A DNA stretch of 64,000 bases from Clostridia bacterium (GTDB lineage: Bacteria; Bacillota; Clostridia; Christensenellales; CAG-1252): contig JAIKVL010000007.1 of assembly GCA_024685775.1 (NCBI GenBank), positions 15,627-79,626 of the forward strand, read 5' to 3'. Of the stretch, positions 33,485 through 39,598 are shown one piece after another. The notes below the pieces were generated by a model, which did no database searches, was not told the origin of the DNA, and worked only from the letters and a program-made list of their open reading frames with translations. How positions within the stretch are numbered: position 1 is the stretch's first letter; each line of letters starts with the position of its first letter. The position numbers and the translations under genes were made by a program.

Positions 33485-33523
33485 AATCCCGCGTGATTCC
33501 TTCCGGGTGCGCGGGATTTTTTT
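33485..33523 (+). terminator. Rho-independent terminator
   Basis: AATCCCGCG...CGCGGGATT plus T-run. Confidence 0.7.
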
Positions 33524-33573
33524 ACGGGGAGCGACCCTGTTTTTTCCTTGCGGAAAAACGGCGGGCGCGCATA

Positions 33574-33603
33574 TTGACAAAATTTTCGCCAATATGTTAT
33601 TAT
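33574..33603 (+). promoter_or_regulatory. sigma-A promoter of amidase lipoprotein gene
   Basis: TTGACA-18-TATTAT with extended TG. Confidence 0.7.
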
Positions 33604-33662
33604 ATATAATTATAAAACGCACATCCCGCGCGAGGCGCCGATATTCGATCAAGGAGAATACC

Positions 33663-36600
33663 ATGAAAAAAGTTCGCTTTTTATTCGTACTGATTTTTCT
33701 GTTTTTTTGTACGGCGATTTTGATTTCTTGCGGCGGGATCACTTTTTTCAAGAACACAAATACGAAACCCGAAGAGAAAACCCTCGATTTTACGACGGTG
33801 TACGCGATGGCGGAAGACGCGGGCTACACGGGAACGATGGAAGAGCTCGTCGCTCTTTTCAAAGGAGACAGCGCGTATCAAATCGCGGTCGCGAACGGGT
33901 ACAGCGGCAGTGAGCTCGACTGGCTTGCTTCTCTTTCCGGCGCCGCGGGTAAGGACGGGAAGACTCCCGCGATCGGCGCGAATAAGCATTGGTACGTCGG
34001 CGGCGTGGATACCGGCATTTGCGCCGAAGGGAAAGACGGCGTCTCTCCGACAATCGAGATCAATGCGGACGGCTACTGGGTCATCAACGGAATCGCGACG
34101 AATAAAAGAGCGGTCGGGATCGCGGGCGAAGACGGAAAGGACGGCGTAACGCCGACGATCGAGATCAACGAAGAAGGCTATTGGGTCATTAACGGCGTCG
34201 TGTCGAACGTCAAAGCGGCGGGCGAAAAGGGCGCGGACGGCTTGATGCCCGAGATCACGATCAATGCGGAAGGTTACTGGGTCGTCAACGGCGTCGCCAC
34301 CGATAAAAAAGCGGTCGGGACCGCGACGGGCGAGACGATCGTCCCGACGATCGGCGACAATCATCATTGGTACATAGAAGGCGTGGACACCGGCGTCCTC
34401 GCGGAAGGCGTAAACGGATCGAACGGCGCGGATGGCGCAAACGGTAAGTCCGCTTACGAACTCGCCGTGGAGAACGGCTACGTCGGAACCGTCCAAGAAT
34501 GGCTTGCGTCTTTGGTCGGCGCGGCGGGCGAGAACGGAATCGACGGGACGAACGGTAAAGACGGAAAAGACGGAAAAGACGGCGTAACGCCGACGATCGA
34601 AATCAACGAGCAAGGTTACTGGGTCATTAACGGCGTGGTGACGAACGTCAAAGCCGCCGGCGTGGACGGTAAAGACGGCAAGGACGGTAAAGACGGCAAG
34701 GATGGAACGAACGGGATCAACGGTAGCGACGGCGCGAACGGAAAATCCGCGTATGAACTTGCCGTGGAGAACGGATACACGGGTACCGTTCAAGAATGGC
34801 TCGCGTCTTTGGTGGGTGAAGCGGGCGTAAACGGATCGAACGGCGCGAACGGTGCGGACGGAAAATCCGCGTATGAAATCGCGCGCGATCACGGGTACAC
34901 GGGTACCGAAGCGCAATGGCTTGCCTCTTTGGTCGGAGCAACGGGCGCGACGGGCGCGGCGGGGCAAAACGGAATTAACGGAAGTAACGGCGCGGATGGA
35001 AAGTCGGCGTATGAACTCGCCGTGGAAAACGGCTTTAACGGCTCGCTCTCCGAGTGGCTGGACAGCTTGATCGGCGCAGACGGCAAAGACGGACAGGACG
35101 GCAAAGACGGAACGAACGGAATAAACGGCAGCAACGGCGCGAACGGCAAATCCGCTTACGAACTCGCGGTCGAAAACGGCTTTAACGGGTCTCTTACCGA
35201 ATGGCTTGCGTCCTTGGTCGGTGCGACGGGCGCGGCGGGGCAGAACGGCAAAGACGGAAAGGATGGAAAAGACGGGGTCGACGGTACGAACGGAACCGAC
35301 GGCGCGGACGGGAAGTCCGCTTACGAAATCGCGTGCGATCACGGGTACACGGGAACCGTTCAGGAATGGCTTGCTTCCTTGGTCGGCGCGACGGGCGCCG
35401 CAGGGCAGAACGGACAAAACGGGACGAACGGCGCGAACGGAAAGTCCGCGTATGAACTCGCACTGGATCACGGCTATACCGGAACCGAAGCGCAATGGCT
35501 CGCTTCCTTGGTCGGAGCCGCGGGTCAAGACGGAAAAGACGGCAAGGACGGTAAGGACGGCGTAACGCCGACCGTCGAGATCAACGCGCAAGGCTATTGG
35601 GTCATCAACGGCATTCAGACGGCTGTCAAAGCGGTCGGAACGAACGGAACGAACGGGACGAACGGCGTGAACGGACAAGACGGGAAAGACGGAAAAGACG
35701 GCGTCTCGATCGTCAGCGTCGAATGGAATGAAAACAAAGAACTTTTGATCACCTTATCCAGCGGAACGGTTCTGAACATCGGGCAGATTCCCGCCGCGGA
35801 AGGCGACGTCCTCGATTATTATCCCTTGGATAACGGAACGTGGGGCGTAAAAGCGGGCAAAGGCTATTACCTTTCGAGCGTCGTGATCCCCGCGTCTTAC
35901 GAAGGCAAGGCGGTCACGAAGATTCTGCCTTCCGCTTTCGAAGGCGACCGCAATCTCGAAACGATTTCGATTCCTTCTTCGATCGTCGAGATCGGTGAAA
36001 AGGCGTTCTTCGGTTGCGAGAACCTCGCTTCTCTTTCGATCCCCGCGAGCGTAACGCGGATCGACGATTGGGCGTTCCGCGATTGCATGGGACTCGAATC
36101 CATCGAAGTGGCGGCGGGTAATTCGACCTTTGCGGTAAACGAAGGAAAACTTATCAACGGCTTGACGAATAAACTCGTCGCTTGCGTCGTCGGTTCGGTC
36201 TATTATTCGCTCGTGATCGATAATTACGTCGGCGTCGGCGAAGAAAAGACGGTTTCCGTCATTTCCGATTATCTGACTGCGAACGACTTTACCTATTCCG
36301 TTTCCGACGAAAGGATAATCTCTTTCCTCGGGAACTCGTATCAAGGATTGAAGGAAGGCACCGTGACGATCTACGTTACCTTCAACGGCGAGACCGAAAC
36401 CAAAGAGGTCACCGTCAAGGAAGTCCGTTATTTGTCCTTTGATTTGGACGGCGGCTCGGCGGTCGATCTCCCCGATAGAGTCTATGCGGGGACGACGGTC
36501 GATCTCCCCGTCGGCACGAAAGACGGCTATCAGTTCGCGGGTTGGTTCGTCTCGTCCTCTTTTGCGGGCGATCCCGTGACCACGCTTTCGGATCAAAATG

Positions 36601-38657
36601 CGAACGTTACTTCGTTGTACGCCCGCTTCGATAAGCTCTACACCGTTACTTTCCGCTATACGCGCGGCGGTAATCCCTATTTTGCGACCGTCGAATCGAC
36701 GTATATCGGCGGGTACACGCTTTTGCATCCGACCTATGATTCCGCCGTCGAATATTTCAGCGGCTGGTTCCTGGACGAAGATTTCGTGGACGAAGTAACG
36801 GAGATCCCCGAAGGTTTCGGCACGGATCTCGAACTTTACGGTGCGTTCGTCAGCGCGACTTCTCAGATCACTCTGACCTTCGTCGCGACGGGCGGGACGA
36901 TCTCGGGTGACAGCGTCGTCGAATGCCTGCCCGGCTATGATTCGTATCCGACCGCGACGCACCCGCACTTCGAATTCGGCGGCTGGTATCAAGACAGTAA
37001 CTGCACGATCCCCGCTTCGCCGCGCGCATTCAGGACGCAGACGCTTTACGCCTATTTCTACGAGGTAACGGCGGTCGATTCGATCTCGATCGATTTCCCC
37101 GAAGCGGAAGTCGTCCTCGGCGGAACGGCGACTCTTCCCTACACGCTGTATCCCTCTACGGTCACCGTCCGAGCCGTAACCTTCGAATCGAGTAATCCGA
37201 GCGTCTTGACCATCGACGAGAACGGCGTTATGACGGCGCACGCCGTCGGTTTCGCGACCGTTACCGTGACTTCGCTTTCGTCCTCCGGCGCGTCCGCGAG
37301 CCTTGAAATCGAAGTCTTTACCGAACCGAACACGATCTCCGCGGCGTACGACACCGATTCCTTCGTTATGGTCGGGAACACGATCACGCTCAGCGCGAAC
37401 GCGCACGTTCGCCGCGTCGACGATCCGACCCTGACTTGGACGAGTTTGGATCCCGCGATCGCGGCGGTTTCTTCGGACGGCGTCGTAACGGGCATTTCGG
37501 ACGGGTACGTCCTGATTCGTGTCAGCACGGAGGAAAAGCCGAGCTTACATTTCGACATCGGCGTAACGGTCTATGCGGCGGATAACCCGCTCCGCTCGAT
37601 CATCGAGTCTAACCACAGCGTCGTTGGAAGCGTAAAGAACCTCGGCATCGGAGCAGGCACTCCCGCGTATTACGTCGACTTGTACGAAAGCATCAACGGC
37701 GCACTTTTCAATAATACCTACGAGATCCTCCGCACCTACGAGACCAAGGCGAATAACAATACGCAAAACCACGGCGCGGCGAGATCCTCTACCGAATTCA
37801 TCACCGTCCACTATACGGGCAATATGGCGTCGAGCGCGGGTGCGAAGAACAATTCGAGCGCGCTTGCGAACTCCACGAGCGCGAGCATCCATTACGTCGT
37901 CGGTAACGATGGAATCTATCATAACCTGAACGACAGCAAGATCGCCTATCACGCAGGCGACGGATCGAGAACGGTTGCTTGGTCGGCTACGGGCGTGTAC
38001 GTTCAGGAAGGGGATCCCGAGTGTCCGGTTTGGGGCGTCTCCGGGACGAAGTTTACGATCAACGGCAGGACGACGACCGTTTCGCTTCCCTCCGACGTTC
38101 CTTCCGCGAAGAGGTCGGCGGCGTACTTCAACGATATGGGCTTTGGTTATAAGATCGTAAACGGGCAATACTATATGAACGCGACTTGGTGGTGTACCTC
38201 GCAAGTCTCGGCGGGTCGTATCGTTAACCACGGCGGTAACCGCAATTCGATCGGTATCGAGACCGCCGTCAATAAGGGCAGCGATCTCTGGCTGACTTGG
38301 CATTACACCGCGCAACTCGTCGCGAGACTGATGATTACCTACAATCTTCCGATCGAGCGCGTCGTCGGTCACCACTTCTTTACCGCGAAGGATTGCCCGC
38401 AACCGCTCCTTGAAAACGAGCTTGAACTTTGGTGGAGATTCATTGAGTGCGTCAAGACGGAATACGCGATCTTGACCGAGCTCGAAGGCGCAACCGTGTC
38501 GATGGCGCTCGTCGGCGAGTACGAGAACGTTACCGAGAACGGTCGCGTGACCGCGGGAACGAGTACGGACGAGTTTATTACCTACGACGTGACGGTGACG
38601 ACCGCGGGCGGCGTCTCCACGACGGTTCGACTGACTTCTCTTCTGAAAGCGGAATAA
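33663..38657 (+). CDS. 1664-aa lipoprotein: collagen-like stalk, BspA LRR, InlB-B repeats, Ig-like domains, C-terminal N-acetylmuramoyl-L-alanine amidase (Amidase_2)
   Basis: SD AAGGAG, lipobox LISC; G-X-Y and GKSAYELA repeats; LRR IGEKAFFGCENLASLSIP; FDLDGG...FAGW; Big_2 VTFESSNPSV; amidase ITVHYT, HAGD, SIGIE, GHH, KDCP. Confidence 0.88.
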   Translation: MKKVRFLFVLIFLFFCTAILISCGGITFFKNTNTKPEEKTLDFTTVYAMAEDAGYTGTMEELVALFKGDSAYQIAVANGYSGSELDWLASLSGAAGKDGKTPAIGANKHWYVGGVDTGICAEGKDGVSPTIEINADGYWVINGIATNKRAVGIAGEDGKDGVTPTIEINEEGYWVINGVVSNVKAAGEKGADGLMPEITINAEGYWVVNGVATDKKAVGTATGETIVPTIGDNHHWYIEGVDTGVLAEGVNGSNGADGANGKSAYELAVENGYVGTVQEWLASLVGAAGENGIDGTNGKDGKDGKDGVTPTIEINEQGYWVINGVVTNVKAAGVDGKDGKDGKDGKDGTNGINGSDGANGKSAYELAVENGYTGTVQEWLASLVGEAGVNGSNGANGADGKSAYEIARDHGYTGTEAQWLASLVGATGATGAAGQNGINGSNGADGKSAYELAVENGFNGSLSEWLDSLIGADGKDGQDGKDGTNGINGSNGANGKSAYELAVENGFNGSLTEWLASLVGATGAAGQNGKDGKDGKDGVDGTNGTDGADGKSAYEIACDHGYTGTVQEWLASLVGATGAAGQNGQNGTNGANGKSAYELALDHGYTGTEAQWLASLVGAAGQDGKDGKDGKDGVTPTVEINAQGYWVINGIQTAVKAVGTNGTNGTNGVNGQDGKDGKDGVSIVSVEWNENKELLITLSSGTVLNIGQIPAAEGDVLDYYPLDNGTWGVKAGKGYYLSSVVIPASYEGKAVTKILPSAFEGDRNLETISIPSSIVEIGEKAFFGCENLASLSIPASVTRIDDWAFRDCMGLESIEVAAGNSTFAVNEGKLINGLTNKLVACVVGSVYYSLVIDNYVGVGEEKTVSVISDYLTANDFTYSVSDERIISFLGNSYQGLKEGTVTIYVTFNGETETKEVTVKEVRYLSFDLDGGSAVDLPDRVYAGTTVDLPVGTKDGYQFAGWFVSSSFAGDPVTTLSDQNANVTSLYARFDKLYTVTFRYTRGGNPYFATVESTYIGGYTLLHPTYDSAVEYFSGWFLDEDFVDEVTEIPEGFGTDLELYGAFVSATSQITLTFVATGGTISGDSVVECLPGYDSYPTATHPHFEFGGWYQDSNCTIPASPRAFRTQTLYAYFYEVTAVDSISIDFPEAEVVLGGTATLPYTLYPSTVTVRAVTFESSNPSVLTIDENGVMTAHAVGFATVTVTSLSSSGASASLEIEVFTEPNTISAAYDTDSFVMVGNTITLSANAHVRRVDDPTLTWTSLDPAIAAVSSDGVVTGISDGYVLIRVSTEEKPSLHFDIGVTVYAADNPLRSIIESNHSVVGSVKNLGIGAGTPAYYVDLYESINGALFNNTYEILRTYETKANNNTQNHGAARSSTEFITVHYTGNMASSAGAKNNSSALANSTSASIHYVVGNDGIYHNLNDSKIAYHAGDGSRTVAWSATGVYVQEGDPECPVWGVSGTKFTINGRTTTVSLPSDVPSAKRSAAYFNDMGFGYKIVNGQYYMNATWWCTSQVSAGRIVNHGGNRNSIGIETAVNKGSDLWLTWHYTAQLVARLMITYNLPIERVVGHHFFTAKDCPQPLLENELELWWRFIECVKTEYAILTELEGATVSMALVGEYENVTENGRVTAGTSTDEFITYDVTVTTAGGVSTTVRLTSLLKAE
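33790..35720 (+). repeat. coding repeats: 8 G(K/D)SAY...WL.SL.G units and 7 P.I..N..W...G..T units interleaved with Gly-X-Y triplets
   Basis: Counted in the translation; imperfect DNA repeats in frame. Confidence 0.9.
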
Positions 38658-38738
38658 CCCTCGGAAACGCGCGGCGATCCGCCGCGCGCTACGATTTGAT
38701 TTTTTACTTTCGATATGCATCTCGGAAAGGAGAAACCT

Positions 38739-39497
38739 ATGAAAAGACGGATAACGATCTTTTTGATTGTCGCGACGGTTTTCGCTCTTGCGAGCGGGTT
38801 GTTTTCCTGCGACAAGAATAAAAGCGAACTCTCGGATCCCGAATTTCAAGCTCCTTCGCTCGTCGCGACCTACGGGCAGACGCTTTCCGACCTCGATCTT
38901 CCTGAAGGTTTCGTTTGGCAGGATCTCGAATCGACTTCGGTCGGAGAGATCGGAGAGCATACCTTCCTCGCTTCCTATCATCCGAAAGATCTCGCGAAGT
39001 ATAAGATCGTGAGCGGCGTCCGAATCCTCGTGACGGTCGAAAAACGCCCGACGGACGTAGAGCCGCCGGATCCGATCCTCGCCGTCTACGGCGATACCCT
39101 TCAAGATCTTGCGCTCCCCGAGGGCTTTTCTTGGCAAGAAGATCCGAGCACTTCGGTCGGAAGCGTCGGGGATGCCGTCTTTTACGCGACCTATACTCCC
39201 GAAGATCCCGCGCATAACGAGATCGTTCGCGATTTGGCGGTCACGGTTCTCGTGGGAAAAGCGACTTACGACCTGTCGGGCGTCGTCTTCGACAGTAAAG
39301 CGGTCGTCTACACGGGCGAACCGATCTTCCTCTCGATCCGCGGGACGCTTCCCGAAGGCGTGACGGTTTCTTATGAAAACAACGGGCAAACGGAAGTCGG
39401 CGCGTACGTCGTTAAAGCGGTTTTTAAGGGGGACGAGGCGAACTATAATGCGATCGAGGATTTGACGGCGAATTTGGTCATCACGCGCGGAGAATAA
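38739..39497 (+). CDS. lipoprotein with two Ig-like repeats and an MBG domain
   Basis: Lipobox LFSC; twice YGxTLxDLxLPEGFxWQ...SVG; YTGEPI...LPEGVTVSYENNGQTEVGAY...ANY. Confidence 0.8.
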   Translation: MKRRITIFLIVATVFALASGLFSCDKNKSELSDPEFQAPSLVATYGQTLSDLDLPEGFVWQDLESTSVGEIGEHTFLASYHPKDLAKYKIVSGVRILVTVEKRPTDVEPPDPILAVYGDTLQDLALPEGFSWQEDPSTSVGSVGDAVFYATYTPEDPAHNEIVRDLAVTVLVGKATYDLSGVVFDSKAVVYTGEPIFLSIRGTLPEGVTVSYENNGQTEVGAYVVKAVFKGDEANYNAIEDLTANLVITRGE

Positions 39498-39556: not shown

Positions 39557-39598
39557 AAAAAAGGGTTTTACCGAAAGAAAGGTAAAGCCCTTTTTTTT
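39557..39598. terminator. bidirectional terminator between convergent surface-protein genes
   Basis: AAAAAAGGGTTTTACC-gaaagaaa-GGTAAAGCCCTTTTTT. Confidence 0.85.

Follow-up and report, generated by a model that had tools for sequence, protein, structure and literature searches.

A gene in the window, by which we mean the whole 64,000-nt stretch of contig JAIKVL010000007.1 that was analysed, encodes a lipoprotein that joins a membrane-anchored, collagen-like stalk to a zinc amidase of the peptidoglycan-cleaving type. The producer is an uncultured rumen/gut Christensenellaceae bacterium with a genome of 1.7 Mb (97% complete). The gene is a single open frame on the forward strand (33507-38657), and with the likely start ATG 33663 its product consists of 1664 amino acids (aa). 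In the explanation that we put forward, and whose chances we hold to be about even, this protein is an accessory, horizontally acquired surface enzyme made of two mobile parts, which cleaves peptidoglycan outside the cell's own sacculus. For trimerisation, stalk length, enzymatic activity and action in trans this explanation rests on what we infer. The stalked amidase is a new fusion between a widespread stalk and an undescribed lipoprotein-amidase family, not a new category of protein; no published description of this family, or of a collagen-stalked lipoprotein amidase, was found in the searchable literature.

Domain architecture

Along the protein, Pfam matches over the cut-off follow one another in the order Collagen, LRR_5, Flg_new, two Big_2 domains and Amidase_2. 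The parts of the gene that correspond to them, all on the + strand, are:

33663..33731, +, signal peptide and lipobox L-I-S-C23, with the Cys codon at 33729-33731 (predicted lipidation)
33792..35708, +, stalk, aa 44-682, with 13 Gly-X-Y runs, 88 triplets, 8+1 helix-turn-helix units and 7 hairpin units
35805..36242, +, BspA-type leucine-rich repeats (LRR_5), approximately aa 715-860, the best Pfam stretch being 751-817
36270..37052, +, beta-sandwich spacer and three Flg_new / InlB-B-like repeats, approximately aa 870-1130
37071..37562, +, two Big_2 Ig-like domains, aa 1137-1300, where the cassette held in common with Bacilli homologues starts
37590..38654, +, amidase module, aa 1310-1664, made up of an N-terminal extension, an XlyA/PlyL-type Amidase_2 core and a C-terminal beta domain
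37971..38228, +, family-specific beta-rich insert of 86 aa (aa 1437-1522), between 'HAGDGS' and 'NHGGNRNSIGIE'

The N-terminus of the protein reads MKKVRFLFVLIFLFFCTAILISC-GG, and its signal peptide (MKKV to ILISC23) fits the lipobox [LVI][ASTVI][GAS]C. Lgt is encoded in the producer genome (PF01790 match, 196.8 bits), and a lipobox is also present in the orthologues of the stalked amidase and in most members of the amidase family. An earlier note on this DNA had described a lipobox, and this one is canonical; the same note had placed a peptidoglycan amidase at the far end of an anchored, fibre-type stalk, and the order of the parts and the intact catalytic residues bear this out. Its eight helical units are present as canonical copies, to which one degenerate first copy can be added, and its count of seven beta-hairpin units was reproduced. 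The LRR, InlB-B and Ig spacers that it named are recognisable as LRR_5, three Flg_new (InlB-B-like) units, which can be read by eye in the protein sequence as ..GW(F/Y)...LY(A/G)(R/A/Y)F, and two Big_2 domains. The positions proposed for the zinc ligands (37809, 38370 and 38394) and for a Glu (38259) are in frame and encode His1383, His1570, Cys1578 and Glu1533, all invariant in 20 homologues. What had to be corrected is the extent of the collagen-like sequence: a Gly-X-Y stalk is present, but instead of about 680 aa of Gly-X-Y it is a stalk of ~640 aa in which Gly-X-Y makes up 41%. Two features had been overlooked, namely the insert of the amidase (aa 1437-1522) and the C-terminal beta domain of ~55 aa.

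The amidase module

The Amidase_2 profile (PF01510) matches aa 1377-1581 with 55.7 bits (cut-off 26). The zinc ligands H1383, H1570 and C1578, together with E1533 and K1576, can be aligned to XlyA and PlyL, and all five residues are invariant when 20 family members are aligned. Over its last 355 residues the protein can be aligned to XlyA, PlyL and PlyG in two blocks, with the 86 extra residues between them. Many positions of the insert, among them W131, T134-G135, D142-P143, N158-G159 and W200-W201 of the module, are likewise invariant among the same 20 members. A pair of cysteines is present in this region in most of the family (..TWWC.., ..GRIC..), and a disulfide is possible; at aa 1511/1521 of the window protein (~nt 38193-38225) the first cysteine is kept and the second lost (GRIV), and the same-genus orthologue has neither.

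The AlphaFold model of the module (pLDDT 81.5, pTM 0.86) contains an XlyA-type core, outside of which lie the beta-rich insert and the small C-terminal beta domain. In Foldseek the core shows the T7-lysozyme/PGRP-type alpha/beta fold, with probability 1.00 and a TM score of 0.87 (normalised to XlyA) to XlyA (3rdr/3hmb) and 0.77-0.79 to PlyL/PlyG; next after XlyA come staphylococcal AmiA/AmiE, AmpD and LytA, and the viral-library matches of the model are headed by phage endolysins. The module looks like an active enzyme and not like a decayed binding domain.

Among known systems, XlyA of the B. subtilis PBSX prophage and PlyL/PlyG of Bacillus anthracis prophage/phage (1yb0, 2l47) are closest to this core: the fold is the same (TM 0.87 and 0.78), the sequence likeness reaches E 5e-13, and the His/His/Cys zinc site is found in common with the Glu and the Lys. 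They are, however, ~160-aa catalytic domains of cytoplasmic endolysins, which are released by a holin and aimed by a wall-binding domain, whereas the stalked amidase has the 86-aa insert, is extended at both its N- and its C-terminus, lacks any known wall-binding domain and is located at the tip of a 1300-aa lipid-anchored stalk. AmiD of Escherichia coli, an outer-membrane lipoprotein, is a zinc amidase with Amidase_2 like the window protein; unlike the latter it is small, periplasmic and stalkless, and serves the cell's own muropeptide turnover.

Distribution and origin of the Big_2-amidase cassette

The two Big_2 domains and the amidase module form a cassette (aa ~1096-1664) that is colinear with the C-terminal ends of its homologues at 42-55% identity. 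These homologues belong to a family of 640 lipoproteins of 900-2860 aa, in which the amidase is always C-terminal, a lipobox is nearly always present and the spacers are Flg_new and Ig-like domains. The sources are mostly uncultured gut Bacilli and some Clostridia, and the record titles name Bacilli, Mollicutes, Acholeplasmatales, Erysipelotrichaceae, 'Staphylococcus sp. CAG:324' and 'Coprobacillus sp. CAG:698'. The family is large, with hundreds of proteins in gut metagenomes.

The gut-Bacilli lipoprotein amidases, found in RF39-, ML615J-28-, RFN20- and Acholeplasmatales-like metagenome-assembled genomes (MAGs), share with the window protein the Big_2-Big_2-amidase-insert-C-domain cassette, a lipobox and an amidase placed C-terminally, and in databases they are named only 'N-acetylmuramoyl-L-alanine amidase' or 'InlB B-repeat-containing protein'. 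They differ in that, among the best 120, Flg_new/Ig-like spacers take the place of the collagen stalk. A combination of Collagen with Amidase_2 was sought elsewhere: Amidase_2 is not listed among the best 120 of 1366 stalk homologues, nor a collagen domain among the best 120 amidase homologues, and the exceptions are P0005 and P0014, the only short-stalk amidase homologues, with 7 triplets, two helical and three hairpin units.

In the window's own family the module is present in three of 28 species genomes (two of the 14 high-quality ones), and it is absent from genomes of the same genus with a completeness of 91% and 95%. Because only three of the 28 genomes have it, the module is, as far as gene distribution can tell, accessory and not core. 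When 81 modules were placed in a maximum-likelihood tree, the three Christensenellaceae copies grouped together (100/97) in a single clade that is nested in the Bacilli radiation. The nearest sister of this clade consists of two copies from genomes lacking penicillin-binding proteins (PBPs), with a support of 94/93 that is below the starred threshold. Since the Christensenellaceae copies nest inside a radiation dominated by gut Bacilli, horizontal acquisition is indicated, and the simplest history suggested by the tree would be a single such acquisition, after which the cassette was fused to the local stalk. In the same tree, amidase modules on contigs binned as Prevotella sp. / Bacteroidales (L026, L065) are almost identical to those of Bacilli MAGs (branch lengths 0.034 and 0.009 for L024 and L026), which is probably due to mis-binning or very recent transfer.

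The stalk and its relatives

Within aa 44-682 there are 88 Gly-X-Y triplets (264 residues), distributed over 13 runs, and the Collagen profile reaches 68 bits (cut-off 27.2). Between the runs stand a helical unit of 23 residues, SAYELAVENGYTGTVQEWLASLVG, which follows the pattern SAY(E/Q)(I/L)A..(N/H)G(Y/F).G(T/S)...WL.SL.G, and a hairpin unit of 24 residues, PTIEINEEGYWVINGVVTNVKAAG, which occurs five times in the 'PTIEIN..GYWVING' form and twice as HWY.GGVDTG ('HWYVGGVDTG'-type) variants. Such repeats were found in no other open reading frame (ORF) of the 1.7-Mb genome. A true orthologue in a MAG labelled Christensenella sp. UBA1252 (73-82% identity) has the same domain order and 75 triplets, and the Gly-X-Y pattern is kept at 73% identity despite length changes. 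A short version of ~775 aa, from another genus of the family, has a lipobox, 23 triplets, one hairpin unit, LRR, one Ig domain and the amidase.

The same stalk is joined to different heads in related genomes of the family and order (G001, G007, G008, G010, G017, G018, G020, G031 and G039). Trypsin-like protease heads with a C-terminal beta domain are found in L007-L010, a BMP-type solute-binding protein head in L005 and L006, a BspA-type LRR head in L012 and L013, and Flg_new arrays in L011; together, L005-L013 appear to be a 'stalked lipoprotein' family of Christensenellales-like genomes. The membrane-proximal base module (aa 44-125) retains 51-72% identity across these differently headed lipoproteins. 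In a large protein database the 1366 stalk homologues include phage tail fibres as well as surface proteins of Clostridia whose heads are of the LRR_5/Flg_new, cohesin or CBM26 type. These sequence comparisons characterise the stalk as a general lipoprotein spacer in this bacterial family. If the explanation given above is true, a lipid-anchored, phage-fibre-like stalk would set the distance from the membrane of proteases, binding proteins, adhesins and hydrolases in the clade.

In a comparison with PHROGs, the repeats of the stalk give strong matches to phage tail-fibre families, with phrog_25979 at 2.8e-120 and several others that bear the annotation 'tail fiber protein'. Notwithstanding these matches, the gene does not have the phage or prophage location beside tail genes that marks a phage tail fibre. 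Tail fibres are trimers, and by this analogy the stalk chains most likely assemble into a thin, segmented rod of three chains. If triple-helical, the Gly-X-Y part would span ~75 nm (264 residues x 0.286 nm), which would be more than the thickness of any Gram-positive wall. The prophage collagen-like proteins of the EPclA/EPclB type, side-tail fibres of E. coli O157:H7 that are without hydroxyproline, have been found by experiment to be stable trimers, in which short collagen segments are flanked by phage-fibre trimerisation modules (PMC3368898). They differ from the window protein in being virion parts with neither lipid anchor nor enzyme, and their flanking modules PfN, PCoil and PfC are unlike those described here.

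A second likeness is to the collagen-like surface proteins of Gram-positive bacteria, for which Pfam Collagen over the cut-off provides the connection. Scl1/Scl2 (Streptococcus pyogenes) and BclA (Bacillus anthracis) display a globular head on a collagen-type stalk, at a distance from the Gram-positive surface. These proteins have one continuous Gly-X-Y region, a binding head, and anchoring by LPXTG (Scl) or in the exosporium (BclA), whereas the window protein has an N-terminal lipid anchor, 13 short Pro-free runs and an enzyme head. The NCBIfam SclB model (NF038329, Scl2/SclB LPXTG adhesin) gives 107 bits against a cut-off of 325, and the C-terminus carries the amidase module and no LPXTG. 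As far as we know, the collagen-like proteins so far described from bacteria have heads that bind; an enzyme would be displayed on a bacterial collagen-type stalk if our explanation is true.

Own wall or foreign peptidoglycan

The wall genes of family holders bear on the question of the substrate. Three gut Bacilli/Bacillota MAGs of 1.8-2.0 Mb (G062, G069 and G072) gave no match to a PBP transpeptidase or to FtsW/RodA and only weak Mur_ligase_M matches, and they hold two, three and four intact lipoprotein amidases, respectively. All nine (L016, L021, L025, L027, L083, L031, L075, L077 and L081) have lipoboxes and catalytic motifs. As a set, these MAGs go by the names Tb.RUG.122, RGIG3506 and T1900044957. 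Because PBP and SEDS genes are missing and Mur-ligase matches are weak, it appears from gene content that in cells of this type the enzyme can only meet foreign peptidoglycan. For part of these orders wall loss has been inferred, and for others a need to scavenge muropeptides (PMC10868615). A restriction of the family to wall-less cells was considered and rejected, as 19 of the 23 tested genomes have 4-9 Mur_ligase_M matches; G064, a 0.7-Mb fragment, is uninformative for wall genes. The idea that the producer itself is an auxotroph for MurNAc or amino sugars, like Tannerella, was also rejected, since MurB and GlmS are present. As the genome also encodes two PBPs, a SEDS polymerase and four proteins with Mur-ligase domains, obligate scavenging by the producer is not supported.

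Several observations weigh against an enzyme that is held out on a three-chain stalk and acts on outside peptidoglycan. The producer makes its own wall, as is seen from the genes just listed (2 PBPs, 4 Mur-ligase-domain genes, MurB, GlmS, FtsW/RodA), and the stalked amidase is its sole Amidase_2, the other amidase being a membrane-anchored, CwlD-like Amidase_3 of 243 aa. Most holders of the family are walled as well, with 5-9 Mur-ligase matches and thereby a full set of these ligases, and no completeness figure is reported for G062, G069 and G072. As for the stalk, the 88 triplets lack proline, Lys or Ala fills most X positions and Asp or Asn most Y positions, and the runs are short (3-11 triplets); we know of nothing to indicate that Pro-free triplets with Lys at X and Asp/Asn at Y favour triple helices. 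In the Protein Data Bank no solved structure was found for the helical or hairpin units, the matches being collagen low-complexity ones only. A single-chain AlphaFold model of the stalk base, built from five sequences, has a pLDDT of 50; in it each helical unit has two helices and each hairpin unit three short strands, which agrees with the labels in the earlier note and proves little more. Finally, the RNA support consists of a few short contigs, for which DNA carry-over is possible.

Since the protein is the sole Amidase_2 of a walled producer, a role in turnover of its own wall has to be considered: it could be an ordinary autolysin for wall turnover or daughter-cell separation, with stalk and spacers that merely reach through the wall. 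The intact catalytic residues would suit such a role, and the structural neighbours include known Amidase_2 autolysins (AmiA/AmiE of staphylococcal Atl, LytA). We nevertheless regard an autolysin as rather unlikely. A core separation enzyme should persist among close relatives, but the module is missing from 25 of the 28 family genomes, including the nearly complete ones of the same genus, and its natural absence in sister species already suggests that separation proceeds normally without the gene. In addition, the module was apparently acquired from another class, members of its family occur in genomes without detectable wall synthesis, and the stalk and arms, if extended to the ~100 nm that we estimate, would go far beyond what is needed to span a wall. 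Because sister species are without the gene, the origin lies outside and copies are present in genomes without detectable wall synthesis, a housekeeping role is less likely, and action in trans is favoured by these comparisons but unproven. The claim of the earlier note that this is 'not a normal autolysin' is therefore favoured by three comparative results, none of which proves it.

The second question concerns the stalk, whose Gly-X-Y region could instead be a flexible, mostly monomeric low-complexity tether, so that the protein would be a monomeric adhesin-enzyme on a leash; this would fit either function. The composition and short length of the runs and the low confidence of the single-chain model speak for a tether, as do the domains C-terminal to it (LRR, Flg_new and Big_2), which are typical of monomeric adhesins. 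On the other hand, Gly occupies strictly every third residue in 13 separate runs, the orthologue with 75 triplets retains this pattern at 73% identity, the repeats match families of tail fibres, and the related prophage proteins form stable trimers (PMC3368898), which makes a tether improbable in our view. A prophage origin of the locus, by which the protein would be what is left of a tail fibre or of a tail-associated lysin and not a cellular surface protein, was rejected and is most improbable. It would account for the matches of the stalk to tail-fibre PHROGs and of the amidase to endolysin PHROGs, and for the fold that the amidase has in common with prophage endolysins. However, the protein has a canonical lipoprotein signal peptide, the gene lies among cellular neighbours with its own sigma-70-like promoter and a terminator, no phage genes occur in the scanned neighbourhood, gene and synteny are conserved in a second species, and in relatives the stalk carries housekeeping-type heads (protease, solute-binding protein).

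Proposed mechanism

If the protein is indeed an accessory enzyme that acts outside its own sacculus, its parts could work together as follows. Export by Sec and lipidation of Cys23 would fix the N-terminus in the cytoplasmic membrane. In the first mobile part (aa 24-682), short Pro-free Gly-X-Y runs alternate with helix-turn-helix and hairpin units in the manner of phage tail fibres, and a rod of three chains may nucleate at the base module, which is conserved, and at the non-collagen units that recur along the stalk. Everything after the stalk would make up the second part, in which LRR, Flg_new and Big_2 form adhesin-type arms; there would be three of them, each tipped with an amidase. The tip of each arm is a predicted zinc N-acetylmuramoyl-L-alanine amidase of the XlyA/PlyL type with the 86-aa insert and the C-terminal beta domain, and the Big_2-amidase cassette was presumably taken horizontally from gut-Bacilli lipoprotein amidases. 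Such an enzyme could strip stem peptides from the glycan strands of the walls of attached neighbours or of rumen/gut wall debris, and as a result neighbours would be weakened or lysed, peptides would be released for uptake, or both. The producer might gain from this by killing, by feeding or by attachment.

A further-reaching version of this mechanism is conceivable, although we think it doubtful. In it the protein would be a 'grazing' device, a three-chain fibre of ~100 nm whose LRR/Ig arms grip neighbours while their peptidoglycan is stripped or lysed, so as to feed an auxotroph with a small genome; the family would have been born in wall-reduced or wall-less gut Bacilli as a bacteriolytic or muropeptide-harvesting apparatus, and later passed to Christensenellaceae and mounted on their own stalk. 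Bacteriolytic activity has long been known from the rumen mollicute Anaeroplasma bactoclasticum. The amidase family offers a concrete candidate for muropeptide acquisition or for lysis of neighbours by wall-reduced gut bacteria, whose need for muropeptides was predicted from genomes with no enzyme named (PMC10868615). Taken by itself, the amidase module, conserved insert included, is likewise a candidate lytic enzyme, possibly of unusual substrate range.

Genomic context and expression

The stalked amidase gene is chromosomal and does not belong to a prophage. The signals and the second gene that accompany it, also on the + strand, are:

33574..33603, +, promoter-like site TTGACA-18-TATTAT with TG extension, 11/12 (a consensus match alone)
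33652..33656, +, ribosome-binding site AGGAG, 6 nt 5' of ATG 33663
38715..39497, +, co-oriented downstream lipoprotein gene (260 aa), which begins 57 nt 3' of the stalked amidase gene
39557..39596, +, strong terminator-like hairpin (16 pairs and a T-run), 3' of the gene for the 260-aa lipoprotein

The promoter-like site is near consensus and is located ~60 nt 5' of the start codon. Because the terminator-like hairpin follows the 260-aa lipoprotein gene, the two genes probably form one transcription unit. Short contigs from four metatranscriptome runs, including sheep and bovine gut, match 37034-38068 at 98-100% identity, which is weak evidence that the stalked amidase gene is transcribed. The surrounding genes are cellular: Hsp33, a TPR protein and three membrane proteins are encoded on the upstream side, a GGDEF gene is also nearby, and beyond the downstream lipoprotein gene there is a convergent CBM26/transglutaminase gene of 2757 aa.

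The pair formed by the stalked amidase and the downstream lipoprotein is syntenic in a same-genus genome, where the counterpart of the latter has at least 965 aa and five MBG_3 repeats (L014 4148-7060). The 260-aa protein of the window looks like a shortened form of this counterpart. The notion that it is an immunity protein is unsupported, its orthologue being an MBG_3-repeat surface protein. Both the producer's own genome (G000 contig C30 6243-6500) and its relatives contain giant open frames, 6,000-10,000 aa long, in which LRR_5-like repeats occur, and these small genomes devote much of their coding capacity to surface proteins.

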